DNA of 19,656 bases, taken from an uncultured Ectothiorhodospiraceae bacterium. GTDB taxonomy: Bacteria > Pseudomonadota > Gammaproteobacteria > CAYFSA01. A program made the position numbers and the translations under genes. This document shows positions 1 through 18,253 of this stretch, one piece after another (the stretch's first letter is position 1; the number at the start of each line of letters is the position of its first letter). The DNA lies in the NCBI GenBank assembly GCA_964635785.1, contig CAZWQC010000010.1, forward strand, positions 1 through 19,656. Direction: 5' to 3'. The notes beneath the pieces were generated by a model. The model was not told the origin of the DNA. It worked only from the letters and a program-made list of their open reading frames with translations, and did no database searches.

Positions 1-795
1 ATCCCGAACCATGCTGCCGTCGTCCGCCTTCTGCGTCGGCAAACAATTCGCCCTCGGCGTCAAGTAAAGATTACGACCCGGACCGCCGGTCGTAATCTCC
101 CATTCATCGACACCATCGAGCAGACCCTGCGCGGCCAGTGCGTGTAAATCCGATGCCAGTTGGTTGCGATAATCGGCTTCCGGGTCACGCAAAAGGCCCA
201 CCACCATGCCCAGCTTCTCCAGCGGGCGCGTCCAACTCTCGTTCAACCAAGCCGCCGACCACCAGATATCGCCGAGGATGCCTTTTTGCCGTTGACCGAA
301 ACCAATCTCGGTCGTGTCTCCGTACTCGAGTTCGATAAAGCCGTTGACTGGGGTGCTCAAGTCGGCGCGCAGAAAATACATATCGCCCCAGGGGACGGTA
401 TCGTGCTTTCGCCGAACCGTTTGCCGTGCATCCGCCAGCAGTGCCGCGATCACTTTGAGCATGTTGTTAAAACCTTGTTCGTAGCCCAAACTGACCCGGA
501 CATTGTGTGCCAACATGTTGACAAGCAAAAGCGATTGCGCTTGATTGCCAACCCCCGCCGGGGCTTGGTTCACGACGCCCGCGATATCGGTTGGATTCGT
601 TCTGGCTTGTCGTTGCCGAGAAGCTAACACCAAACCTTGAATCGCGGCTCGCAATGACTCCGCTCGAGTCCCGTCGAGCACGCCATTCGGGCCGTCCAGC
701 GTGACGCCCAGTTCAGCGGCGACCCGGCGAAGTTCGTCAACCGGAACGCCCATTTCCTGCGCCAAATCTTTGACCGCTATTTTATTCAATGTGAT
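1..795 (-). CDS. Hypothetical protein, partial. The N-terminus is at 795 and the C-terminus lies beyond the window start.
   Basis: I hand-translated the minus strand and found an uninterrupted reading frame from TTG at 795-793 to position 1. AGGAG lies 8 nt upstream of the TTG. The N-terminus reads LNKIAVKDLAQEMGVPVDELRRVAAELGV, which resembles a SAP/Rho-N-like helix-hairpin. The rest is protein-like with GC-rich codon usage. This ORF is not in the supplied track because it has no in-window stop. The plus-strand ORF 160..627 is its antisense shadow. Confidence 0.5.
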   Translation of the reverse strand, partial: MTLNKIAVKDLAQEMGVPVDELRRVAAELGVTLDGPNGVLDGTRAESLRAAIQGLVLASRQRQARTNPTDIAGVVNQAPAGVGNQAQSLLLVNMLAHNVRVSLGYEQGFNNMLKVIAALLADARQTVRRKHDTVPWGDMYFLRADLSTPVNGFIELEYGDTTEIGFGQRQKGILGDIWWSAAWLNESWTRPLEKLGMVVGLLRDPEADYRNQLASDLHALAAQGLLDGVDEWEITTGGPGRNLYLTPRANCLPTQKADDGSMVRD

Positions 796-1094: not shown

Positions 1095-1880
1095 ATGGCT
1101 GATATCCTTTCGTTACTAAATCTTGAACATCGACAGATGCGCGCAGCGCTTACAAGGTTGGAGCAGTATTGTGACGGTGGAGTGTCATTCGATCGAGACG
1201 GCTTTGCCAAGTGCTTTGACTTTGTCGCCGGATTTTTGGCGCATTGCCATCACGTCAAAGAGGATCTCCTGTACCGCAAACTGCTTGAGCGCAAACCCGA
1301 CAGCATTGACCCACTCCCCGATCTGCCCACGGCCCACCAGGATCTCAACGCCCGACTCGATGATCTACGCGAGACAATGGCGATTCACGGGGACCATAGC
1401 GAACCACTGCATGTTGCCCTGACGACCGCTACATTGGCGTTGGTCAATTACCTTCGCCAGCACTTTGACGCGGAAGAACGGACTTTCTTTCCTTTAGCGA
1501 TAGCCCACCTGACGCGCGATGATTGGGATACGATCGACTATGCCGTATTCGACGATTCAACACCGGTTGTCGACCCGGCATTGGAAAAAAACTTCCGTTC
1601 CTTGCTCGATGCTTGCAACGTCGAGGGTGCACAACCATTGAGCGTACTCGCAACCGAAGCGATTGACGGCCCAGGCGACACAATGGCGGAATTCAACCTC
1701 ACGATGACACAGGGAAACCATACGGCGCGACTGAACAAGATCAACGGCTCGGCGTATTGCTTGCTCGATGGTGGCACAACATTGGTGACCTTCCCGGCCT
1801 GCGACGAAAAGCTCGCCGCGTGGAGTGCCTGGTATTTCTTGTTGGGGAAATTCACAAACACGCAGGCATACCATACCTAG
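1095..1880 (+). CDS. Hemerythrin-like (HHE cation-binding) domain protein with a ~100-aa C-terminal extension of unknown function
   Basis: The 261-aa ORF has spaced His/Glu motifs typical of the hemerythrin fold: LEHRQMRAAL, HCHHVKEDLLYRKLL, HQDLNARLDDL, LRQHFDAEERTFFPLA. A weak SD lies upstream. It is divergent from the gene at 1..795. Confidence 0.65.
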   Translation: MADILSLLNLEHRQMRAALTRLEQYCDGGVSFDRDGFAKCFDFVAGFLAHCHHVKEDLLYRKLLERKPDSIDPLPDLPTAHQDLNARLDDLRETMAIHGDHSEPLHVALTTATLALVNYLRQHFDAEERTFFPLAIAHLTRDDWDTIDYAVFDDSTPVVDPALEKNFRSLLDACNVEGAQPLSVLATEAIDGPGDTMAEFNLTMTQGNHTARLNKINGSAYCLLDGGTTLVTFPACDEKLAAWSAWYFLLGKFTNTQAYHT

Positions 1881-4249: not shown

Positions 4250-5611
4250 ATGGCAGCTACTCGCGCCGGAAAACGCTTCGAATGCTCGGCATGCGGAGCC
4301 ACCCAACGCCGGTGGACCGGCCAGTGCCCCGAATGCGGACAGTGGGACAGCCTCAGCGAAGTCACGGTAAGCACTGCCGCCACTCACCATCGGCATGGTG
4401 GCTTCAGTGGCGAAACGGCAACGTTGCAACGCCTCGATCAGGTTGCGCAAGAACAAACCGCCCGTTACAGCACCGGAATTGCTGAATTCGATCGCAGCCT
4501 GGGTGGCGGACTGGTCCGTGGTTCGGTGACCTTGGTCGGTGGCGATCCAGGTATCGGTAAATCCACCCTGTTGTTGCAAATGCTTGCCCATGTCGAGGTC
4601 GAACAAAGCATCTACGTCAGTGGCGAGGAATCACCCGCGCAAGTGGCCCTGCGGGCCCGCCGCCTCGGTTTGGCGAGCGAACGCTTACAACTACTTTCAC
4701 AAACGCATCTGGAAACCGTTCTCGCCACCGCCGCAGCGGCACACCCAGCCATCATGGTGATCGACTCGATCCAAACCTTGTTCAGCGATCAGCTCACGGC
4801 GGCTCCTGGGGCGGTCGGTCAAGTTCGCGAATGTGCCGCGCAGTTGGTGCGTTTCGCCAAACAAACCGGCAGTAGTTTGGTATTGGTCGGCCATGTGACC
4901 AAGGAGGGCGCAATAGCCGGTCCACGCGTACTCGAGCACATGGTCGATACCGTCTTGTATTTCGAAGGCGAGGTCGGTAGCCGCTATCGCGTGTTACGGG
5001 CCGTGAAGAATCGCTTCGGTGCAGTCAACGAGCTGGGCTTGTTCGCCATGACCGAGCAAGGCTTGAAAGGCGTCAACAATCCCTCGGCCATGTTCTTGTC
5101 TCGGCACGAGCAACCGGTTCCAGGTAGCCTGGTCATGGTTAGCCGCGAGGGCACACGACCTCTGCTGGTCGAAGTTCAAGCACTGGTAGCGGACAGCCAT
5201 GGTGCGCAGCCGCGCCGCCTGGCGCTCGGTTTGGAAGCAAACCGGCTTGGTATGCTGTTGGCGGTATTGCAGCGACATGGCGGCATTACCATCGGTGATC
5301 AGGATGTCTATCTCAACGTTGTCGGCGGTATGCGTATTGCCGAAACCGCTGCCGATCTCCCCGTGGTCCTGGCTGCATTATCCAGTTTTCGCAATCGCGC
5401 CATTCCCAAGGATTGGGTCGCCTTTGGCGAGCTGGGTTTGGCCGGCGAAATCCGGCCGGTCCCGCATGGTGAAGAACGCCTGAAAGAAGCTGTCAAACAT
5501 GGTTTTCGCCGCGCCCTGCTACCGCAAGCCAATGCGCCACGGCAATCCCCGCGAGGTATCGAGGTCACGCCGCTGCGGCGGTTGGCGGATGCGATCGATG
5601 TGTGGGACTAA
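4250..5611 (+). CDS. radA: DNA repair protein RadA (Sms)
   Basis: The 453-aa product has an N-terminal C4 zinc finger (CSACGATQRRWTGQCPECGQW). It has a Walker A motif (GDPGIGKSTLLLQ) and the RadA KNRFG motif. A C-terminal Lon-protease-like domain is present (GELGLAGEIRPVP). It begins 10 nt after the yfjD stop. Confidence 0.95.
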   Translation: MAATRAGKRFECSACGATQRRWTGQCPECGQWDSLSEVTVSTAATHHRHGGFSGETATLQRLDQVAQEQTARYSTGIAEFDRSLGGGLVRGSVTLVGGDPGIGKSTLLLQMLAHVEVEQSIYVSGEESPAQVALRARRLGLASERLQLLSQTHLETVLATAAAAHPAIMVIDSIQTLFSDQLTAAPGAVGQVRECAAQLVRFAKQTGSSLVLVGHVTKEGAIAGPRVLEHMVDTVLYFEGEVGSRYRVLRAVKNRFGAVNELGLFAMTEQGLKGVNNPSAMFLSRHEQPVPGSLVMVSREGTRPLLVEVQALVADSHGAQPRRLALGLEANRLGMLLAVLQRHGGITIGDQDVYLNVVGGMRIAETAADLPVVLAALSSFRNRAIPKDWVAFGELGLAGEIRPVPHGEERLKEAVKHGFRRALLPQANAPRQSPRGIEVTPLRRLADAIDVWD

Positions 5612-5754
5612 CCCCCGTTTGGCCGGTTTCTGCCGCAAGACCGAAAGTCGGAGTCCTGCAATCGAGGTGGAGTTCGGTGAAGATTCCGCCAGCCACCCCA
5701 TCCGCAAGCTCTGAATGCCAAGTCCCTTGCCAATCGTCCCTGTGTCTCAATCAG

Positions 5755-7215: not shown

Positions 7216-7290
7216 GGTGTAGACAGGAGGAATCGAACCTCCGCCCACTCGAATGAAATCGAGTGCTCTATCCGACTGAGCTATATCCAC
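7216..7290 (-). tRNA. tRNA-like gene with canonical acceptor, D and T arms but an abnormal anticodon arm (7-bp stem with 6-nt loop, or 5-bp stem with 8-nt loop). Anticodon assignment is ambiguous; candidates are CAU or UCA.
   Basis: The reverse complement reads GTGGATA-TA-GCTC-AGTCGGATA-GAGC-A-CTCGA-TTTCAT-TCGAG-TGGGC-GGAGG-TTCGATT-CCTCC-TGTCTAC-A-CC. The acceptor stem has 7 bp, two of them G-U pairs. The D-arm is GCTC/GAGC with the conserved AGTCGG sequence. The T-arm is GGAGG/CCTCC with a TTCGATT loop. The variable loop is 5 nt and the body is 73 nt. CCA is not encoded. Confidence 0.6.
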
Positions 7291-8964: not shown

Positions 8965-11262
8965 TCATGGTTGGAAAAATCGGTAACTGTTGCGGCCGTC
9001 TTGCTTGGCTCGATACATGGTTTGGTCGGCATGCCGGAGCAGCGTGTCGGCATCCCCTGAATCAATTGGGTAAATCGTCACCCCAATGCTGGCCGAGATC
9101 TGTGCCCGTTCGCCTTCGATTGCGTACGGTTCGGCGATGCGTGCAAGGATGCGATCGAGGGTTTCGATGACGCGGCTCGGGTTGTCCAAATCGCCGAGTA
9201 GGACGCAGAATTCGTCGCCGCCCAAGCGAGCGACCGTATCGCTTTGTCGGACGCTGGCATTCAGTCGCTGGGCGACGGCCAATAACAGTTCGTCGCCGGC
9301 TTTGTGTCCGAGGGTGTCGTTGATGGGTTTGAAATTGTCGAGGTCGAGGTAGCAGACGGCGAGTAAGCGATGATCTTTCGTCGCGTTGGTCAGACCATGG
9401 GCGAGCCTTTCCATCAGCAGGCGGCGATTCGCCAACCCGGTGAGGGGGTCGTAGTAAGCCATTTGCTTCAATTGGTTCTGGCTAGCGTACAGTGCATCCA
9501 TCGCTTGTTGCCTGCCAACTGCACCGCCAATCAAGTTGCCGAGATAGCGTAATACCAGGGCTTCATCGTGGGTCCAGTGCCGCGCCTTGGAACTGGTGGT
9601 CAGTGCAATGCAACCAAGCAGGTCTTCGCCGAAGGTGACTGGGGCTGTCAATAGCGAACGAACCCCGCGGCTTTGCAAATAACGGCGTTCATCGGCCGGG
9701 ATGGTCACGGCGTCGGTAATGTGTGACAGAACGACGATTTCGCCTTGCTGTAACGGCTGTAACGCCTTTGGCAGCATTTGCGGATCCAGAAAAAACTGAC
9801 CATCGTTGGGCTTCTTCGGCGGTTTTTTGTCCCATACGTAATGACGGTGGGTTGCCTGACCGGCTGTATCGAACAAAAGTATACCGCATCGTTCCGTGTT
9901 GGTTTCTTCACCAATTAGCGTCAGCGCCCGTTCGATCATGGCGGCCAGACTGAGTGTTTTGTTGTTGAGCAGATGAGCGGAGATTTCGGTTAGGCGAAGT
10001 TCCAAGTCGGCCCGGTAGCGGATTTCGTTTTCGAGGTGGATGCGCTCGGTCTCATCACGGCCGACTGCGTAAATGAGTCTAGTATCGAGAAATGCCCGGG
10101 CTGACCAAGCGATGGTGCGATAATGACCGTCACGGCAACGCCAAGCCGTTTCAAACGAATAGACTTGACGGCCGGCGAGAATTTGCTGAATCGCTTCGCG
10201 CGTGCGGGTGATATCGTCGGGATGGAGGAACTCGACGATCGACCGATTCAGGATTTCCTCGGTAGCGTAGCCGAGGATGTTTTGCCAGGCCGGATTGGCG
10301 CGAACCAGGTATTCATCCGGACCGATGACACAAAACAAATCCAAGGCCAACTCGAAGAACTGGTTTTGGGCTTCCAAGGTCAGTTCACGTTCGGTGATAT
10401 CTTGCACTGTGCCGATGCGGCGAATCGGCTGCCCGTCGGTAAACTCGGTATGGCAACGTTCGTAGACGTGTTTGATGCGGCCATCGGGCAGCACGAGCCG
10501 ATATTGGTAATGCCAGTCGGGTTGTCGGTCGGCTGCGAGGTCGTGTTGATAAATCACCCGACGGCGGTCACCTTGGTGAACGCGTTGGATAAACGCCGCG
10601 AAGCTCGGCGTCGTGTCCGGGTCGATCTCCCAGATTCGATACAACTCGGCAGACCACCACAACTGCTTTTGGTGCAGATCATGCTCCCAGTTGCCCAGAC
10701 CGGCGACGCGCTGGGCTTCATTCAGTAAGGCTTGCTGGTGGGCGAGTTGTTGTTGATAGTGATAGCGCGCGTGGATATCGCGGACTTGCACGAGAATGCC
10801 GCAGATATTGCCTTCATTATTGAGCCTGGGCGTATAGCAAATTTCTTGGCGGCGGTGTTGGCCGTCACGATGGGGGCAAAATGCTTCGTAAACCACTCGT
10901 GTGCCGTTAAGGCAGCGCTCGAGATTGGGTTTGACTTGGGTTTCGTAGAATGGCTTCGGTATGACCTCGCTGACGTGCCGGCCAATGGTTTGTTGCAATG
11001 TGCGGCCCCATGATCGCAAGTAGGCGCGATTGGCGGCGCGATAAATGAAGTCGCGGTCAAGCGCGGCAAATCGATCCTCGCTTTGTTCGATCAGCTCCCG
11101 ATAAACCCCGAGCGTGTTGTTATCACCGCGGTTTGCCAACGCTATGGCTTGCTCAGTAGGGTGGCCGCATTGGTACGCACCCTGTGCCGGGTTGCCAAGG
11201 CGAGGTCTGGGCTGATTGGCTGCGCAAGGGTTGTCGGTGCTGGTGTAAGACGGCGTTGTCAT
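8965..11262 (-). CDS. PAS/PAC-PAS-GAF-GGDEF diguanylate cyclase with an intact GGDEF motif and an RxxD I-site
   Basis: The C-terminus reads YDPLTGLANRRL...CYLDLDNFKPINDTLGHKAGDELL...RQSDTVARLGGDEFCVLL, which is a complete GGDEF domain. A GAF-like region and at least two PAS/PAC modules lie upstream. I used the ATG at 11262 (MTTPSYTS...). The supplied track extends the ORF to a TTG at 11340. Neither start has a clear SD. Confidence 0.85.
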   Translation of the reverse strand: MTTPSYTSTDNPCAANQPRPRLGNPAQGAYQCGHPTEQAIALANRGDNNTLGVYRELIEQSEDRFAALDRDFIYRAANRAYLRSWGRTLQQTIGRHVSEVIPKPFYETQVKPNLERCLNGTRVVYEAFCPHRDGQHRRQEICYTPRLNNEGNICGILVQVRDIHARYHYQQQLAHQQALLNEAQRVAGLGNWEHDLHQKQLWWSAELYRIWEIDPDTTPSFAAFIQRVHQGDRRRVIYQHDLAADRQPDWHYQYRLVLPDGRIKHVYERCHTEFTDGQPIRRIGTVQDITERELTLEAQNQFFELALDLFCVIGPDEYLVRANPAWQNILGYATEEILNRSIVEFLHPDDITRTREAIQQILAGRQVYSFETAWRCRDGHYRTIAWSARAFLDTRLIYAVGRDETERIHLENEIRYRADLELRLTEISAHLLNNKTLSLAAMIERALTLIGEETNTERCGILLFDTAGQATHRHYVWDKKPPKKPNDGQFFLDPQMLPKALQPLQQGEIVVLSHITDAVTIPADERRYLQSRGVRSLLTAPVTFGEDLLGCIALTTSSKARHWTHDEALVLRYLGNLIGGAVGRQQAMDALYASQNQLKQMAYYDPLTGLANRRLLMERLAHGLTNATKDHRLLAVCYLDLDNFKPINDTLGHKAGDELLLAVAQRLNASVRQSDTVARLGGDEFCVLLGDLDNPSRVIETLDRILARIAEPYAIEGERAQISASIGVTIYPIDSGDADTLLRHADQTMYRAKQDGRNSYRFFQP

Positions 11263-11535
11263 CGGTTTAGCCCAATGCGAACTGATAAGTTTAGTATCGT
11301 CGCCTTCGTCGGGGTAAGCAATTCGGGAAAATACTTGCAACGAACTAGGCAGAGATGGTCAAGCGGATGGTCTGTTGCAATCGTCGCGAGATGGTTCGGC
11401 AAACCGGGTTAAATGTCGGTTGTATACCCAGGCAAATTGCGATGTTATTAGTTTTTTGAGAGCTTTTCGGTGTTTTGAGCTGGATATGCCAGTGCAATAC
11501 GCGTGTGGTTTAGCCGTTCGGCTAGCGCTGGCTTC

Positions 11536-11574
11536 TGCAAAAAGCGATATGGCAGGCTGCCAGTTTGTGATCGC
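11536..11574 (-). terminator. Intrinsic terminator downstream of the FixL-like kinase gene
   Basis: On the minus strand the sequence reads GCGAT-cacaaact-GGCAG-cc-TGCC-at-ATCGC-TTTTTGC. This is a compound hairpin followed immediately by a U-run. It lies ~75 nt after the stop at 11647. Confidence 0.55.
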
Positions 11575-11646
11575 TTAAGTCTTTTGGGCAAGTGTGTGGT
11601 GACAGGGGAAGCGCGCAGACACTGGCGACGGTGGCCGGGCGATGGT

Positions 11647-13218
11647 TTACGGGTTCGCTTGATACGCTGGCGCATAAGGCAAAGTAAAAGCAATGCAGGC
11701 GCCAGGGTCGCGATCGGGGTCTCGATGCTCGAGCCAAAAGCGACCGCCGTGGGCCTCGATAATCGCGCGGCAGACCGCCAAACCGATGCCGGTGCCGGCA
11801 GTGCGGTTTGTGATGGCGCTGTGCAGGGCAACACCTTGATAACCCGGTGGGAGCCCTGGACCGGTGTCGGCAACCGTGATGCGGACCTCGTTGGGTAAGG
11901 GTGTGGCGACGATGTCAATGAGTCGCCTGGGCGTATTGCTGCGGGAAATGGCGTCGATCGCGTTTTGTATGAGATGCAGTAGCACCTGCTCGCCTTGTGC
12001 CGGGGTAATCCATAGCCGTGGCGTGTCGTTGGGAATGAACGTGCGAATTTGGATGCGCCGGGCATCCGCTTGGGCTTTGATGTGCTCGATCGCGGACATG
12101 CACAATTCGGCGCAGACGACAAGCTCGGGTTCGGGTTGGCCACGGCGAAAAAGATCGCGGGTTTGAGCGAGTATCTGCCCGAGTAAGTGCAGTTGTTCGG
12201 CGGCTTGTTGGAGGGGCTCGGTCAGATCGGTTGAGACGTCGTTACCAGGGAGCAGTCGTTCCGAGAGCATTTCCAGGTGTAGCCCGGCGGCCGTCATGGG
12301 TTGCGCGAGTTGTTCCACCAGCGACGTCACCAATGTGTTCATGGCTTCGGTTTTCTGAGCGTTGGCCATGGCGCGACGGCGTCGGGCGATTTCTTCTTCG
12401 GCGAGCTTGCGATTGGTGATGTCTTTGTGAACGATGACGGCACCGGAGAAGGCCGTTTGCCTCAAGGCAGTGACCGTAAACTCAAACCAGCGGGTCCGTT
12501 GTGGGCCGATGCAGGCGTACTCCATCATGAAGTGGTCACGTTGACTGGCTAAAACCAATTGGATGCCCTGATAGGCACGCATCGCGTCGGCATCACCGCT
12601 TGCCGCGGATTGTTGACAGACGGCGAGGTAATCGATGCCAAGCCCCTCTTGCAGGGCGATCGATGCCCCGTTCGTCCGTGCGGTCTGGCGCCAGCGGTCG
12701 TTGACCAAGATGATGTGGCCGTGCGCGTCGATCACCACGATAACGTCTGGAAACGTATTTAAGAACCTTTGCTGAAAGGCTTGTTGCTCGGCGAGCTGTT
12801 GTTCGGCTCGCCATTGTGGCAGGGGATCGAGCATGACCCCGATGCAGCAGCTGCCGCCGGTTCGGTGCGGTCGTGTCGACATTAATTGAAAGGCTTGCGC
12901 CGCGATGCTGGCATGGCGAGGTCTGAGCATGAGTTTGTGCCGGGTTTTGGCGGGCGCCGCGAATACGCGGCGCAGATGGTCGATAAACGGTTGGTAATCG
13001 CCAGCGGCGAGGTGTTCGTGAAAGGCGGCCTGCAGCAGTGTCTGTGGTCGCTGTCCGAGTAGCTTGGCACCAGCCACATTGATTTGCCAGATTCTGCCTT
13101 GCGTATCGAGTAGTACGCGACCGATGGGCGCGAGGTCGCACAAGGGTCGATCACAATAGGCCAAGTGACAGGGTTGGTTTGCCGGCGTGCTTGTCTGTGT
13201 GTCGGTTGGCTCGGTCAT
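11647..13218 (-). CDS. FixL-family PAS-PAS sensor histidine-kinase homologue in which the H-box phosphoacceptor His is replaced by Glu; the HATPase_c domain is intact
   Basis: Two PAS domains are followed by a dimerisation/H-box region, EAMNTLVTSLVEQLAQPMTAAGLHLEML. This aligns residue for residue with the FixL H-box SAMGEMASALAHELNQPLAAI, with E at the His position. I confirmed the reading by translating the DNA directly. The ATP-binding motifs are present: the N-box (VLLHLIQNAIDAI), G1 (VADTGPGLP) and G2 (GTGIGLAVCRAIIEAHGG). I chose the ATG start at 13218; a GTG alternative lies at 13308. Confidence 0.8.
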   Translation of the reverse strand: MTEPTDTQTSTPANQPCHLAYCDRPLCDLAPIGRVLLDTQGRIWQINVAGAKLLGQRPQTLLQAAFHEHLAAGDYQPFIDHLRRVFAAPAKTRHKLMLRPRHASIAAQAFQLMSTRPHRTGGSCCIGVMLDPLPQWRAEQQLAEQQAFQQRFLNTFPDVIVVIDAHGHIILVNDRWRQTARTNGASIALQEGLGIDYLAVCQQSAASGDADAMRAYQGIQLVLASQRDHFMMEYACIGPQRTRWFEFTVTALRQTAFSGAVIVHKDITNRKLAEEEIARRRRAMANAQKTEAMNTLVTSLVEQLAQPMTAAGLHLEMLSERLLPGNDVSTDLTEPLQQAAEQLHLLGQILAQTRDLFRRGQPEPELVVCAELCMSAIEHIKAQADARRIQIRTFIPNDTPRLWITPAQGEQVLLHLIQNAIDAISRSNTPRRLIDIVATPLPNEVRITVADTGPGLPPGYQGVALHSAITNRTAGTGIGLAVCRAIIEAHGGRFWLEHRDPDRDPGACIAFTLPYAPAYQANP

Positions 13219-13353
13219 GTTCGGTGTTGAATCGCTAACCCCGCTGAACGGATCGCGAAAACGGCTTCGTCGGATGAAAGTCGCGACGAGGCGGTCCGTC
13301 GGCGCCACGGTAAAACGCCGCTACGCCAACGGGCCGCCAGGTTTTCGGGTGAT

Positions 13354-13665
13354 TCAACCGGCGAAATGGAAGAGCCGATCGATACCTGCCGCCGACATCC
13401 GATGGCGAAACTCCGGCGGGCAGTGCAAGAGATAGACTTGTTGTTGCGCGGCTTTGGCGCGGCGATGGAGGTTGAGTAACAAGGCCATACCCGAATCACG
13501 CAGTTGCTTGGTTTCGCGTAGATCGACCATGACGGTGCCGATGGTCTTGGCTCGCATCATGTGGGTCACTGAGCGCATTAGCGCTGATCTGGAAATATCG
13601 AGTTCGTCACCGACATCGACAATAACGGCGTCACCATGTTGAGTCGCTTGAGGTGTATGGGGCAT
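13354..13665 (-). CDS. STAS-domain protein (SpoIIAA/RsbV-like anti-sigma-factor antagonist) with the conserved phosphorylatable Ser
   Basis: The 103-aa product contains DAVIVDVGDELDIS...GTVMVDLRETKQLRDSGMALLLNL...VYLLHCPPEFRHRMSAAGIDRLF, which matches the STAS fold. Its DSG motif corresponds to DSSG/DSTG in SpoIIAA/RsbV. An AAGGAG SD lies 8 nt upstream of the ATG. The gene ends 45 bp upstream of the kinase-like gene on the same strand. Confidence 0.75.
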   Translation of the reverse strand: MPHTPQATQHGDAVIVDVGDELDISRSALMRSVTHMMRAKTIGTVMVDLRETKQLRDSGMALLLNLHRRAKAAQQQVYLLHCPPEFRHRMSAAGIDRLFHFAG

Positions 13666-13950
13666 TGATGCGTCTCCTTTGGTATTCGCTTGTCGTCGGA
13701 ATCAATGAAATACTGGCTTAAACGCGCCAGCGCCTGCAGTACTGCCATCATCGCTGACGACGCGATGATGCGGTTTCGTGCACAGGCAATGGTGTCAAAG
13801 TATAACGATCGTTGGCAATCAGGGAATCCGTGCGAATACGGAGTGGTGTGGTCGCGGTGCAGCGACCAGCGCCCGGCCTAGGCGACTGCAAGACCGAGGC
13901 CGCATTGGCGATTCGATGCGAGGCGCGAGCGATCATTGGCAAGCTGATCG

Positions 13951-14604
13951 CTAATCAAAGTCGTTGCGAGCGTGAATCTCGGCGATATGGCAGAGCTCGG
14001 CGAGTTTGCGTACCTTGAGTTTTCTCATCAGATGAGCGCGGTGGCTTTCTACGGTGCGATGACTGATATCGAGTTGGCGCGCGATTTCTTTGCTACTTAA
14101 GCCGGCGAAGGTAATGAGGCGCATGATTTCCAGCTCACGAACGGTGAGTGTTCCGACCAGCGCTTGAATCGATTGGGCATCGGCGGAGGGTGCATTGGGC
14201 GGGTTTGTGGGTCGCTCCGAAGTGGCCACCTGATCGTGTTCTGCCATGACTTCTTCGATGCGGTCGACGAGCTGGCGACGAGTGAAGGGTTTTTCGATGA
14301 AGTCCGCGGCACCGCCTTGCATGGCACGAACCGTTGTTGGGATATCGCCGTAACCTGAGATGAAGATGCAGGGTAGCGTATAACCTTTGGCGCGAAGATT
14401 GGCTTGGACCTCGATGCCGGTCATGTCGGGCAGGCGAAGATCGATCACCAGACAACCGGGCTGTGGCGTTTGATAGAATTCAAGAAAATCGGTGCCGGTG
14501 GGAAAGGCTTGGACGCTGTAACCGGATTGCGACAAGGCGATGGTCAGCGCTTCGCGTAGCGGTTTGTCATCATCAACCAGAAAAATGCTCGGTCGTTGGC
14601 GCAT
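13951..14604 (-). CDS. FixJ/NarL-family response regulator (REC domain plus LuxR-type HTH)
   Basis: The receiver domain has the acidic pair (FLVDDD), the phospho-Asp (LVIDLRLPDMTG), the conserved Ser (ISGYGD) and the conserved Lys (IEKPF). The LuxR HTH reads LTVRELEIMRLITFAGLSSKEIARQLDISHRTVESHRAHLMRKL. I preferred the ATG at 14604 because AAGGA lies 8 nt upstream. The supplied track's ATG at 14667 would add 21 residues to the N-terminus. Confidence 0.85.
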   Translation of the reverse strand: MRQRPSIFLVDDDKPLREALTIALSQSGYSVQAFPTGTDFLEFYQTPQPGCLVIDLRLPDMTGIEVQANLRAKGYTLPCIFISGYGDIPTTVRAMQGGAADFIEKPFTRRQLVDRIEEVMAEHDQVATSERPTNPPNAPSADAQSIQALVGTLTVRELEIMRLITFAGLSSKEIARQLDISHRTVESHRAHLMRKLKVRKLAELCHIAEIHARNDFD

Positions 14605-14965
14605 CGGTTTTCCTTTATGCTTGCCCGCGTCGTGACGGCGGCAGTGACATGGCTGGTATGGGCACAACCGGTATCGCGTGACCTGGTGCTATGGCGCATG
14701 CGGGTTGCCTCGGCGAATAATCCAAAAAAACGCCGGTTCTGCGTCAGTCCTGCTTGCTGATGTTGCACTGCACGATGGTGACCGGTAACGCCCATGACGG
14801 GTAAAATGCGCTGTTACGGTCGCTGCCTGGTGCCTAGTTGCAAGCGCCCGAGTATATCGGTTATTCCACCGAGAATGAAGCCGCAGGTCTGTGGAAAAGA
14901 GCGATTTGGTCGGATGTTGAACGCGTTTGCCGGGTGGTCATGTTCGCATGGTTGCGTTAGCGCTT

Positions 14966-17900
14966 TTAGCCCTCCCGTCGAATTGCCGGGCCTTGCGCAT
15001 CAATGTGGGTTTTTTCGGTGGGATCGGCTGCTGCGGTTTGTAGGGCGTGATCGAGAAATGCCTTAAACGGCATGGGTCGGCCAAACCAGTACCCTTGAAA
15101 GCGCTGACAACCGATGCTCAAGAGAAAATCGAGTTGTTCGGGTCGCTCTACGCCCTCGGCGATGACCGGTAAAGACAGGGCTTGGGCCATGCTCATTGCG
15201 GCACGGACGATAGCGGCATCGCTCGGGTCGGTGTCGACGTCGCGGACGAGGGTCTGGTCGATCTTGAGGGTGTTCAGCGGCAAGTATTTCAACTGGGCAA
15301 GGGATGAATAGCCGGTACCGAAATCATCCAGCTCGACTTCGATCCCCAAGGTTTGCAGTTCGCTCAAGATGTTTTGGGTGCGGGCGAGATCGGCAAACAG
15401 CGATCCTTCCGTGAGTTCTAAATGTAACCGTGTTGTGGGTGTGCCATATTTTGCGACGGTGGCTTGGACTTGCTCGACGAAATGCGGCTGGGCGAGTTGT
15501 CGGGCACTGACGTTCACCGAAACGCATAGGGACGCGGTGTGAGGATAGCGTTGGAGTGTTTGTAAATCGGCGCAGGCGGCGTTCAGGACCCATTCGCCGA
15601 GCGGCAAGATTAAGCCGGTTTCCTCCGCCAGGGGAATGAACTCGCCGGGGGATACGGTTTGTCCGTCGGGGGTAAACCAGCGCAGCAGCGCTTCGGCACC
15701 CAGCAAATGGCCGAAGCGGTCGACTTGGGGTTGGTAAAACAATTGAAGTTCGTCGTGGTCGAGCGCTCGCCGCAGGGCGGCGGCTAGGTTTGCCCGCTGA
15801 TCGATGGCGCGTTGCATCTCGGTACTAAAAAATCGAATCGTGTCGCGACCGGCCCGTTTGGCCGCAAACATGGCGACATCGGCTTGTTTCAGCAGATCAT
15901 CAACGTTACTGCCATGGCCGCAAAAAAGAGCGACACCGATGCTCGCAGAGCAATGGAAGGCTTGGTCGGCACCGTGGAGGTCATAGGGTTTACGCAAGAC
16001 GTCAAGCAGTTGTTCGGCGATGCGTTCGGCATGAACGGCCGCTTGTCTTTCGTCTTCACCAAGCTGTTCGCAAAGCAAGATGAATTCATCGCCACCGAGG
16101 CGTGCGGCCGTATCGGTCGCGCGTAATTGCTTGCGCAGGCGCTGGCCGACCTGGACGAGCAGGGCATCGCCGGCACTGTGGCCGCGGGTATCGTTGAGTG
16201 TCTTGAATTCGTCGAGGTCCAGCATGAACAGAGCGCCGTACTGTTGATCGCGTTCGGACTTGATCAAGGCGTGTCGGAGTCGTTCAAGTAACAGCCGACG
16301 GTTGGTCAAATTAGTGAGTGGATCGTAAAACGCCAGGGCGTGAATTTTTTTTTCCGCTGCCTTGTTCTTGGTGATGTCGAAAAAGGTGCCGACGTAATGC
16401 GTGATGACACCCGCGTGGTTTTTGACGGCGGTAATCGATAGCCATTCGGGATAAACGTGCCCGAGTTTGTTGCGGTTCCAGATTTCACCTTCCCAAAAGC
16501 CGGTGTGGTTGAGATGGTGCCACATGGTTTGATAAAAGCTCGGGGCATGACAACCCGATTGCAATAGCCGGGGGTTTTTGCCAATGACCTCGTCGCTGCG
16601 GTAGCCGGTCACTTCGGTGAAGGTATTGTTGACGCGCTGTATGTTGCCTTTGGCATCGGTGATGGTGATGGCAACCTGGGCTTCGAAGGCGATCGCGGCA
16701 AGCCGGGAATCGGTTTCGGCTAATCGCTGTGCGGTATTGTCGAGGTTGATGCCGGTAACACGAACGGGTTTTCCGTTCAGATCGCAGACGCTGCGGCAAT
16801 AGGCTTTGATGTGACGGGTTTCGCCGTCGCCACGCAGCACGCGGAACTCCGCCTCGTGCGGCCCTTCGCTTTCGCGTGCGTCGGCATGCATGCGTTCGCT
16901 GTCGGCAAGATCATCCGGATGAATCAGGGATCGCCAGAGGGCGTGGTCGATACGGTCGTTGGCGCTAAGCCCGTACAACGCGCGCATGCGATGATCCCAG
17001 ACCAATTGTCCCGATTCGATTTGGTCGTCCCAAATGCCGAATCCGGCCGCGCCGACAGCCAAGGCAAGACGCTCTTCGCTTTGCCGTAGGGCTTCGCGGT
17101 GATGGATGGCGTCAACGGCGAACGAGAGGTTGCCTGTCATTTTGTCGAGGAGTTGGGTTTCCTCAGGACCGAAGAAGTTCGATTCGGTGGCGTATATCGT
17201 GAATACGCCTTGAATGTTGCCTGACCAGCACAGCGGGAAAGCGGCGGCGGCGGTGATGTGGTAGCGTTTGGCGGCTTCTGCCCAGATGGCCGTGTTTGGC
17301 GCGGTTTGAAAATCGTTGACGATTTGGATCATGCCGTCGCGAAAGGCACGGCCGGTCGGTCCTTGGCCTTCGGGTCGATCGCCGTGCACGGAAATGCGAA
17401 TGGCCTGCAGATAATGCGTGTTGCCGCTGGCCGCCGCGATTTGCATCCAGCCAGCCGCATCGGGTTTGCCGACCCAGGCTAAGCTGAACTCCCCATGTTT
17501 GACCGCGGTCCGGCACAGTGCCTCGAACAGGGCTTGTTCATGCGAAAAATGCAAAATGGCGTGATTGGTTTCACTCAAGGTTGCGTACAGCCGCTGCCGG
17601 CGGCGCAATTCGACTTCGGCGCGGCTGCGGCTGATGGCGTAGCGAATGGAACGGATCAAGTTGTCGGCAGTGAACTCACCCTTGATCAGGTAATCCTCGG
17701 CGCCGGCTTCGAGTGCGTGCAACGCATTGGTTTCATCCGTGTTTGCCGTCAGAACGATCAACGGCACATCCGGGGCGAGTAGGCGCAGCTCGAATACGGT
17801 TTCCAGGCCGCTGGTATCCGGCAAGCCGAGATCGACGAGCAACAGCTGGACCGGTTGTTCGGCGAGTAGGGTTTTCGCCTGGCCCAGGGTGGGCGCCCAC

Positions 17901-18010
17901 AAGACCTGCTGGACAATTTGATGATGTCGCAGGATGGCTTCGACAAGCTTGGCGTCGCTCGGTTGATCCTCGATCAAAAGCGCGATGGAATGGTCATTGA
18001 AGGCTTGCAT
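14966..18010 (-). CDS. Hybrid REC-GAF-PAS-PAS-GGDEF-EAL protein, predicted bifunctional for c-di-GMP synthesis and hydrolysis
   Basis: The N-terminal REC domain has the phospho-Asp (LLLVDLGLPD) plus LTANTD and LIKGE. A GAF domain and two PAS/PAC domains follow. The GGDEF domain reads RATDTAARLGGDEF, with an RxxD I-site. The EAL domain has the catalytic motifs EALLRW, ELTEGS, DDFGTGYSS, KIDQTLV, AEGVE and QGY. I used the ATG at 18010; a TTG alternative lies at 18031. Confidence 0.9.
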   Translation of the reverse strand: MQAFNDHSIALLIEDQPSDAKLVEAILRHHQIVQQVLWAPTLGQAKTLLAEQPVQLLLVDLGLPDTSGLETVFELRLLAPDVPLIVLTANTDETNALHALEAGAEDYLIKGEFTADNLIRSIRYAISRSRAEVELRRRQRLYATLSETNHAILHFSHEQALFEALCRTAVKHGEFSLAWVGKPDAAGWMQIAAASGNTHYLQAIRISVHGDRPEGQGPTGRAFRDGMIQIVNDFQTAPNTAIWAEAAKRYHITAAAAFPLCWSGNIQGVFTIYATESNFFGPEETQLLDKMTGNLSFAVDAIHHREALRQSEERLALAVGAAGFGIWDDQIESGQLVWDHRMRALYGLSANDRIDHALWRSLIHPDDLADSERMHADARESEGPHEAEFRVLRGDGETRHIKAYCRSVCDLNGKPVRVTGINLDNTAQRLAETDSRLAAIAFEAQVAITITDAKGNIQRVNNTFTEVTGYRSDEVIGKNPRLLQSGCHAPSFYQTMWHHLNHTGFWEGEIWNRNKLGHVYPEWLSITAVKNHAGVITHYVGTFFDITKNKAAEKKIHALAFYDPLTNLTNRRLLLERLRHALIKSERDQQYGALFMLDLDEFKTLNDTRGHSAGDALLVQVGQRLRKQLRATDTAARLGGDEFILLCEQLGEDERQAAVHAERIAEQLLDVLRKPYDLHGADQAFHCSASIGVALFCGHGSNVDDLLKQADVAMFAAKRAGRDTIRFFSTEMQRAIDQRANLAAALRRALDHDELQLFYQPQVDRFGHLLGAEALLRWFTPDGQTVSPGEFIPLAEETGLILPLGEWVLNAACADLQTLQRYPHTASLCVSVNVSARQLAQPHFVEQVQATVAKYGTPTTRLHLELTEGSLFADLARTQNILSELQTLGIEVELDDFGTGYSSLAQLKYLPLNTLKIDQTLVRDVDTDPSDAAIVRAAMSMAQALSLPVIAEGVERPEQLDFLLSIGCQRFQGYWFGRPMPFKAFLDHALQTAAADPTEKTHIDAQGPAIRREG

Positions 18011-18253
18011 GGGCTGTACGTGTTCGTTCAACTCGGAGTGGGGTCACGGATAAAGTACGCAGTGTAACATCTTGGATCACGTATAACGGTAGCACGATGA
18101 CGCGCGGTTTCAGTGTGACGTTGCCAGCGTACTTGCTGCGTGCGGTGATAAACTGACGGGTGGTTTAGGACCACGGTGCAGGGATCGGTTGGCATCTTCG
18201 GGCTCGACGTTGGGCGCAACCCGGCTTGAGTATGCCATAATGGACAACTTTGG

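Follow-up and report, generated by a model that had tools for sequence, protein, structure and literature searches.

A FixL-related histidine kinase homologue that lacks its phospho-accepting histidine, encoded beside a STAS gene and near a FixJ-type regulator

In the contig CAZWQC010000010.1 of an uncultured Ectothiorhodospiraceae bacterium, a minus-strand gene encodes a histidine kinase homologue with the layout PAS-PAS-DHp-CA (DHp, dimerization and histidine phosphotransfer; CA, catalytic and ATP-binding) in which the phospho-accepting His is replaced by Glu. The stretch analyzed, called the window here, is the complete contig of 19,656 bp, and this is also the scope of all statements on gene content. 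The substitution in the H-box is far outside the variation of the family and, as judged from the sequence, phosphorylation on the canonical DHp His is impossible and the protein cannot be a canonical phosphodonor. The evidence supports the view that this histidine-kinase-derived protein, if it works at all, must work otherwise than by His phosphorylation. We favor the explanation, at a probability of about one half, that it is a lineage-specific pseudo-histidine kinase that signals by regulated binding, with a FixJ-type response regulator encoded two genes upstream as the likeliest partner.

The H-box and the transmitter domains

Residues of the kinase homologue are numbered in the 523-aa protein (P0001) that begins at the start of the public record, the ATG at 13218, unless stated otherwise. 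In phmmer alignments with solved FixL chimeras, the FixL sequence 'alaHElnqpl' lies over 'slvEQlaqpm' of the query without a gap and with similarity on both flanks, placing SLVEQLAQPM opposite the ..HE..QPL of FixL and its relatives. As a family sample we used the 150 best matches among 1.84 billion representative proteins, which were scanned exhaustively with HMMER, in a query-anchored alignment of 153 rows. His occupies the Glu302 column in 148 of the 153 rows; among the other five, a paralogue with Asp (P0002, described below) is the sole true exception, the rest being misaligned. The residue that follows the phospho-His is Glu in 96% of the relatives and Gln303 in the kinase homologue. All 14 full-length closest relatives (29–37% identity, from Chromatiales-type gammaproteobacteria) read SL[VI]HEL.QPL, and His is kept in 82 of the 85 kinase ORFs (open reading frames) at the 81 related loci compared below. 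Three kinases at the related loci L002–L081 read H-Q and seven read H-D, with His kept, so that the change from Glu to Gln at the +1 position occurs elsewhere without loss of the His.

A frameshift or sequencing artifact at the H-box was considered and rejected. The alignment is in frame on both sides of the motif, neither of the alternative frames yields a His, and a slip is excluded because the change from CAY GAR to GAA CAA needs three substitutions. The possibility that a proper alignment would place a His elsewhere was likewise rejected, as Glu stands opposite the His in the pairwise HMMER alignment, in the anchored alignment of 150 hits and with MAFFT alike. The first-pass annotation of this DNA, made from its letters alone, had aligned the H-box with that of FixL, called His-to-Glu and Glu-to-Gln changes and concluded that the protein does not autophosphorylate on the canonical His; these statements are borne out, with Glu302 occupying the His column. 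The protein might still be a working histidine kinase if it used another His, such as His314 in GLHLEML, which lies on the same predicted helix 12 residues downstream of Glu302. This appears highly improbable: His314 is conserved in no relative, 12 residues make ∼3.3 turns and should put it roughly 120 degrees off the canonical face, and the protein has lost the catalytic Glu at +1 as well, with other catalytic motifs degraded.

Further changes are found throughout the kinase core, defined as the 38 positions with at least 80% conservation among the matches. The kinase homologue departs from the consensus at 11 of these positions, compared with 0–5 for members of its subfamily and a mean of 2.7 (standard deviation 2.9) for all matches. 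Besides H302E and E303Q in the H-box, the 11 changes include Leu-Leu in place of the Arg-Ala of DHp helix 2 (R345L and A346L; 93% and 92% conserved), His415 in place of the first Asn of the N box (N415H; 97% conserved) and Leu465 and Ala468 in place of the F-box Phe pair (F465L and F468A; 89% and 88% conserved), with milder changes at K289, M308, R472 and V482 (the Lys of the family at 472 is Arg here). Residues of the nucleotide pocket are kept, namely N419, D451, G453 and G455 of the G1 box (DxGxG) and G475, G477, G479 and L480 of the G2 box (GxGxGL). The earlier description of the N, G1 and G2 boxes as intact is correct for N419, G1 and G2 but fails at the first N-box Asn, and DHp helix 2 and the F box are changed as well. 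The loss of the His, of the Glu at +1 and of the DHp helix 2, N-box and F-box residues indicates that the kinase homologue is no phosphodonor.

Divergence is unevenly spread over the domains. In PAS-B, the identity of the kinase homologue to its subfamily is 36.6%, compared with a mean of 41.8% (range 33.6–46.7%) for the other members among themselves; the corresponding values are 37.6% against 47.2% (42.3–50.4%) for the CA domain and 23.2% against 39.4% (33.3–43.0%) for the DHp domain, which is the most diverged. Measured in this way, the transmitter, and the DHp domain above all, is abnormally diverged and the sensor is not. With the divergence centered on the DHp domain, PAS-B as conserved as is usual in the family and G1, G2 and N419 present, the pattern agrees with a transmitter that has changed or become relaxed, joined to a sensor and a nucleotide pocket that were retained. 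The Pfam HisKA profile matches only weakly (18.9 bits, under the cutoff of 26.9). An AlphaFold 2 (AF2) model built with the subfamily alignment has a mean predicted local distance difference test (pLDDT) score of 81 and a normal arrangement of PAS-A, PAS-B, DHp and CA; its DHp helices span residues 268–322 and 333–358, with Glu302 in the middle of helix α1, and the ATP lid (residues 467–475) is modeled with low confidence.

A FixJ-type regulator as candidate partner

According to the explanation that we favor, the kinase homologue would descend from a FixL/FixJ-type two-component pair, in a kinase subfamily found in Chromatiales-like gammaproteobacteria, and would have retained two PAS sensor domains, the helical hairpin of the dimer and a GHKL domain that binds nucleotide. 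The DHp/CA module would take up its conformation in response to PAS input, and probably also to ATP/ADP occupancy, and would in this way act on a partner by binding it, by sequestering it or possibly by dephosphorylating it. Our best candidate for this partner is the FixJ-type regulator encoded two genes upstream, which is intact; its phosphate would have to come from another kinase or from acetyl phosphate. The STAS protein would be at most an accessory binding partner. Continued function of the protein, its binding of nucleotide and the identity of its partner are steps that we infer.

The regulator has FixJ as its best NCBIfam match (171.7 bits, under the cutoff of 255) and keeps the DD of the acidic pocket, the phospho-acceptor Asp and the Ser/Thr and Lys motifs; its true start is probably Met22. 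A scan of 185,579 species genomes gave 80 loci, and 81 related loci were compared in total; the closest are from a Chromatiaceae metagenome-assembled genome (MAG), an uncultured gammaproteobacterium, Thioalkalivibrio, Thiohalocapsa and Thiobaca. At 47 of the 81 loci, the kinase has a FixJ-like regulator no more than 1.5 kb away, and at 44 of these 47 the regulator follows directly downstream on the same strand. The two best matches to the window regulator adjoin the first- and third-ranked kinase relatives. From these comparisons it is plausible that the window regulator and the kinase homologue are an ancestral cognate pair.

Individual loci vary. Kinase relatives at L002, L004 and L005 are followed by a FixJ-like regulator. 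Two close His-bearing relatives, at 5704–7509 of L003 (a gammaproteobacterial MAG) and 5833–7110 of L037 (Thiobaca trueperi), are orphan kinases with no adjacent regulator, and by translation starts alone their flanks look like housekeeping genes, with a primase-like ORF in both, a tsaD-like ORF in L003 and an rpoD-like ORF in L037.

Several observations weigh against the explanation that we favor. The window regulator lies upstream of the kinase homologue with the STAS gene between them, and this order, regulator-STAS-kinase, is atypical because the related loci mostly have the kinase and then the regulator (the 44 of 47 given above). Over the loci, similarity of the kinase and similarity of the regulator are weakly rank-correlated (rho 0.25, p 0.09). 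Loss of the F box and the low-confidence ATP lid make nucleotide binding by the kinase homologue uncertain, and Gln at +1 makes phosphatase activity doubtful too. Finally, the protein is represented by one sequence, which has no relative above ∼37% identity among 15 billion proteins.

The same gene could instead be an evolutionary relic, an unused kinase drifting to a pseudogene, with the STAS gene beside it by coincidence. Such a history would agree with several independent motif losses (H-box, DHp helix 2, first N-box Asn and F box), with a kinase core more diverged than that of any subfamily member, with a STAS adjacency that is not conserved and with a singleton gene in a poorly sampled lineage whose RadA has at most 66% identity to other proteins. 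However, the reading frame is unbroken across 523–553 codons, and drift that cut DHp identity by ∼16 points should have brought stops or frameshifts; PAS-B is in the family range, G1, G2 and N419 are retained, AF2 gives a well-folded protein, and a parallel His-to-Asp paralogue is stable in seven assemblies. We consider a relic unlikely, though far from implausible.

This paralogue, P0002, is the nearest match of a word-indexed search (33% identity to the kinase homologue) and reads ILADELNQPL, with Asp in place of the His. The Asp is kept in seven members of its cluster from separate assemblies; loci of this metagenomic cluster are L001 (2907–5462) and L082 (9680–12235). P0002 comprises CHASE3, three PAS domains, DHp and CA, and its neighbors are an intact FixL-like kinase, a single-domain REC protein, a FixJ-like regulator, a Crp/Fnr regulator and HtpG, with no STAS gene among them. 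Like the kinase homologue, it has independently lost the phospho-His to an acidic residue within the same broad family and adjoins a FixJ-type regulator. In contrast to the kinase homologue, P0002 still has Glu at +1 and the F box, retains most core motifs (6 changes in 38) and lacks a STAS neighbor. The Asp of P0002 and the Glu of the window protein together indicate that acidic replacement of the phospho-His recurs in the FixL family beside FixJ-type regulators.

The STAS protein and the proposed Ser kinase

The first-pass annotation had placed a STAS gene 45 bp upstream of the kinase homologue on the same strand. This distance is right for the start of the longest ORF; measured to the called ATG it is 135 bp. 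No terminator is predicted between the two genes, and counts from a promoter and terminator scan were equal to the level of shuffled sequence; the STAS and kinase homologue genes are likely co-transcribed. The protein matches Pfam STAS at 39.4 bits (cutoff 22.6) and TIGR00377, the model for STAS-only anti-sigma-factor antagonists, at 38.8 bits, under the cutoff of 53.45. A single-sequence AF2 model (pLDDT 80) has the canonical β-β-α-β-α-β-α topology, with a Foldseek TM-score of 0.80 to SpoIIAA (1h4y and 1th8_B) and of 0.76–0.80 across SpoIIAA and RsbV. Searching the protein databases with the STAS protein returned only itself and no detectable relatives.

It had also been proposed that a DSG motif in this protein keeps the Ser that GHKL kinases phosphorylate. 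This is a misregistration by one residue, as three alignments place Asp57 at that position: R56-D57-S58-G59 aligns with D-S(P)-S/T-G both in HMMER alignments to SpoIIAA (1th8_B) and 4hyl_A and in a MAFFT alignment with SpoIIAA and RsbV. The spacing from the end of strand β3 to the conserved Gly is identical, with no gap. In the STAS substrates of partner-switching kinases, the phosphorylated Ser/Thr stands at the start of helix α2 (PMC13373217), and in our model helix α2 starts at residue 57. With Asp57 in the phospho-Ser column, the STAS protein itself would not be phosphorylatable there.

The mechanism suggested by the first-pass annotation was that a PAS-regulated GHKL domain phosphorylates the adjacent STAS protein, giving a histidine-kinase-derived partner switch. 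The adjacency on one strand with a gap of 45–135 bp and no predicted terminator, the retention of G1, G2 and N419, and a STAS fold nearest to SpoIIAA and RsbV are consistent with such a kinase, and degenerate kinase homologues with proposed new substrates are known, for example the chloroplast sensor kinase CSK (PMC5054060). The details of both proteins argue strongly in the other direction. Asp57 takes the place of the phospho-Ser, and Ser58 is the next position, which is not phosphorylated. The profile for SpoIIAB/RsbW-type kinases, HATPase_c_2 (PF13581), has no match in the kinase homologue at E ≤ 0.01 and does not appear among the precomputed domains of P0001 either; HATPase_c is matched instead. 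Glu four residues ahead of the N-box Asn is catalytic in SpoIIAB-type kinases; SpoIIAB (1til_A) reads S-E-A-V-T-N-A, whereas the kinase homologue reads L-H-L-I-Q-N-A, with His at this position. The F box and the ATP lid are degraded, and the 19.6-kb contig encodes no PP2C phosphatase, no RsbW-like kinase and no sigma factor.

Conservation of the neighborhood gives no more encouragement to a Ser kinase. A STAS ORF was found at none of the 81 related loci in searches by phmmer with the window STAS protein and SpoIIAA/RsbV probes and with a three-sequence hidden Markov model (HMM), searches whose sensitivity is limited for a divergent small domain. The first-pass annotation had itself named uniform retention of the His in orthologues, combined with no STAS linkage, as an outcome that would count against its proposal, and this is the outcome that we obtained: all of the closest relatives keep His-Glu, though they are only 29–37% identical, and STAS linkage is 0 of 81. 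The SpoIIAB-SpoIIAA and RsbW-RsbV pairs resemble the window in having a GHKL-fold gene beside a single-domain STAS gene, but the window kinase homologue has a DHp domain and HATPase_c and does not have the Glu that precedes the N-box Asn by four residues, its STAS neighbor has Asp, and no PP2C or sigma factor gene is nearby. The proposed mechanism is unsupported because a misregistered STAS motif and a non-conserved adjacency underlie it, and we regard Ser phosphorylation of the STAS protein as very unlikely indeed.

A partnership with the STAS protein that does without phosphorylation is a different matter. In this case Asp57 would make the STAS protein a phospho-mimic, the STAS protein and the pseudo-kinase would bind each other or a flanking GGDEF protein, and PAS signals would steer the turnover of cyclic di-GMP (c-di-GMP). 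The likely co-transcription of the two genes agrees with this, as do the flanking genes on the same strand, which encode a PAS-PAS-GAF-GGDEF protein and a REC-GAF-PAS-PAS-GGDEF-EAL protein. There is precedent in Pseudomonas aeruginosa, where phosphorylated HsbA works through the diguanylate cyclase HsbD, which binds it, and where an S56D mimic was used in genetic tests (PMC5085249). However, the STAS adjacency is seen at a single locus (n = 1), the STAS protein has no detectable relatives in which co-occurrence could be followed, the likeness to HsbA and HsbD in sequence does not go past the domain level, and PAS/GGDEF genes are abundant in such genomes, so their clustering may be fortuitous. 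A coupling of the kinase homologue to the STAS protein is possible but has one locus behind it; the c-di-GMP scheme as a whole seems to us rather improbable. Phosphorylation-independent binding, the alternative that the first-pass annotation had offered to a Ser kinase, overlaps with our preferred explanation, and in our analysis the FixJ-type regulator appears better supported as the partner than the STAS protein.

One could go further and imagine a partner switch with no phosphorylation at all, in which the PAS-regulated Glu pseudo-kinase and the Asp57 STAS protein, both frozen phospho-mimics, would exchange partners through ligand and nucleotide binding alone, with the FixJ-type regulator, the flanking c-di-GMP enzymes or both as output. 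We treat this as a long shot. If true, it would amount to a STAS module derived from a histidine kinase, for which the described partner-switching systems offer no counterpart.

Known systems, genomic setting and significance

With a kinase fold and no usable phospho-acceptor His, the kinase homologue has the structural hallmark of pseudo-histidine kinases, and it is a further case of an already known kind of degenerate kinase. The claim that its architecture is undescribed was overstated, as a His-to-Glu protein, CSK (PMC5054060), and a binding protein with the PAS-PAS-DHp-GHKL layout, NifL (PMC10372690), are both known. Its best sequence matches over DHp-CA are to FixL, with 102 bits to the chimeras 8a3u and 4gcz, and the NCBIfam FixL model (NF041777) gives 114.3 bits against a cutoff of 850 in a match confined to DHp-CA. 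FixL/FixJ thus resembles the window in its DHp-CA sequence, in FixJ being the best match of the regulator and in the H-box context ..QP[LM].A, but differs in that the PAS domains of the window protein belong to a subfamily other than the haem PAS of FixL, in having the phospho-His and in the order kinase-regulator rather than regulator-STAS-kinase.

Three histidine kinase homologues serve as precedents for the signaling by binding that we favor. DivL of Caulobacter crescentus, in which the His is Tyr, signals by binding a response regulator and not by phosphorylating it (PMC4211667), and its CA domain is described as degenerate and as binding an ATP analogue poorly (PMC5054060). DivL (4q20_A), which scores 35.5 bits against the kinase homologue, shares with it multiple PAS domains, the DHp-CA fold and the missing phospho-acceptor His; it differs in its Tyr substitution and in coming from an alphaproteobacterial family, where it is both essential and conserved. 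The window protein, by contrast, is a singleton, and the His is present in all of its closest relatives. NifL is neither kinase nor phosphatase, its GHKL domain is an ADP/ATP sensor and it acts by stoichiometric binding to NifA (PMC10372690). It is a histidine kinase homologue with the same architecture of PAS, PAS, helical hairpin and GHKL, but the neighbor in the window is a FixJ-type regulator rather than an adjacent NifA or other sigma-54 activator, neither of which was found in the window, and no sign of an FAD-binding PAS domain was seen, though no search aimed at one was made. Membership in the NifL family (TIGR02938) was rejected, as residues 134–508 match at 72.8 bits against a cutoff of 242.45 and the context is also wrong. 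In plant CSK, the His is Glu, the CA domain is also altered, ATP binding is retained, no autokinase activity has been demonstrated and the sigma factor SIG1 is the proposed new partner (PMC5054060). CSK is like the kinase homologue in the replacement of the conserved His by Glu and in its CA domain changes, and unlike it in its eukaryotic organellar setting, its descent from cyanobacterial Hik2, its GAF sensor and a substitution that is clade-wide, where we have a single bacterial sequence.

Table 1. Coordinates of the kinase homologue, its domains and motifs and the neighboring signaling genes in the window
Feature	Coordinates	Strand	Basis or comment
PAS-PAS-DHp-CA histidine kinase homologue without phospho-acceptor His	11647..13308	-	Longest ORF, 553 aa, GTG at 13308
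PAS-A, residues 33-130	12829..13122	-	AF2 pLDDT about 90; aligned across subfamily
PAS-B, residues 159-266	12421..12744	-	Pfam PAS_4; alignment; AF2
DHp-like helical hairpin, residues 268-358	12145..12417	-	AF2; HisKA 18.9 bits
HATPase_c (CA) domain	11677..12126	-	Pfam 63.3 bits; alignment; AF2
Degenerate H-box TSLVEQLAQPMTAAGLHLEML	12265..12327	-	Pairwise and family alignments; codons
Codons GAA CAA, Glu302-Gln303 (Glu332-Gln333 in the 553-aa ORF)	12310..12315	-	In place of the invariant His-Glu of the family
Single-domain STAS protein, 103 aa	13354..13665	-	Pfam STAS; AF2; Foldseek; AGGAG ribosome-binding site
Asp57-Ser58 codons of the STAS protein	13492..13497	-	Asp57 in the SpoIIAA/RsbV phospho-Ser column; Ser58 one position later
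FixJ-type response regulator, REC and GerE/LuxR helix-turn-helix	13951..14667	-	Pfam and NCBIfam
PAS-PAS-GAF-GGDEF diguanylate cyclase	8965..11340	-	Directly downstream of the kinase homologue; Pfam
REC-GAF-PAS-PAS-GGDEF-EAL protein	14966..18031	-	Upstream; Pfam

The genes of Table 1 form a signaling cluster of ∼9 kb on the minus strand (8965–18031), with five genes, all on the same strand, that include two intact REC domains and two c-di-GMP enzymes; the His-less homologue is the sole kinase-like protein of the cluster. Both c-di-GMP enzymes carry the GGDEF motif as RLGGDEF, and the EAL motif is present. The remaining genes of the contig are of the housekeeping type: a hemerythrin-domain protein, cytochrome c assembly, CNNM/CorC, RadA, SPFH, DUF3108, YajC and a tRNA. 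PADLOC gave no match for the kinase homologue or the STAS protein, and a role in anti-phage defense (CapK/CapS-like or other systems) was rejected. A plasmid origin of the contig was also rejected, megablast having given no match.

RadA (4250–5611, plus strand) has at most 66% identity to anything among 5.8 billion proteins, and its best named matches are from Ectothiorhodospira, Thiothrix, Thioalkalivibrio and Chromatiales, which are sulfur-oxidizing gammaproteobacteria. As judged from this divergence, the source of the contig is a deeply branching, barely sampled gammaproteobacterial lineage. The clusters of the kinase homologue, the STAS protein and RadA are all singletons in the protein databases, and the kinase homologue and the STAS protein have no close relatives because the host lineage is poorly sampled.

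Other genes of the contig drew our attention in passing. A 261-aa protein at 1095–1880 (plus strand) has an N-terminal hemerythrin HHE domain and is a possible sensor of O2, NO or iron, and a 155-aa ORF at 160–627 (plus strand) has no Pfam or PADLOC match. The tRNA gene at 7216–7290 (minus strand; Rfam, 60.7 bits) is reported by ARAGORN as 'tRNA-???' with the anticodon 'tc'; the loop closed by its anticodon stem, CTCGA/TCGAG, has 6 nt (TTTCAT) where 7 are normal. A metagenomic tRNA-Lys(UUU), at 2720–2794 of L089, has the same anticodon stem with a normal loop, CTTTTAA. For the window gene, a tRNA of an unusual kind, a pseudogene and an error in the assembly are all conceivable.

The wider significance of the kinase homologue is limited by its being one sequence from a poorly sampled lineage. 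In annotation, the label of a working sensor histidine kinase should be avoided for this gene, and its STAS neighbor should not be assumed to be phosphorylatable. If the kinase homologue is functional, it would join DivL, NifL and plant CSK, as a bacterial case of His-to-Glu replacement, among the few histidine kinase homologues repurposed for signaling without phosphorylation. Together with P0002, it suggests that FixL-family kinases repeatedly lose the phospho-acceptor to an acidic residue while staying by FixJ-type regulators.

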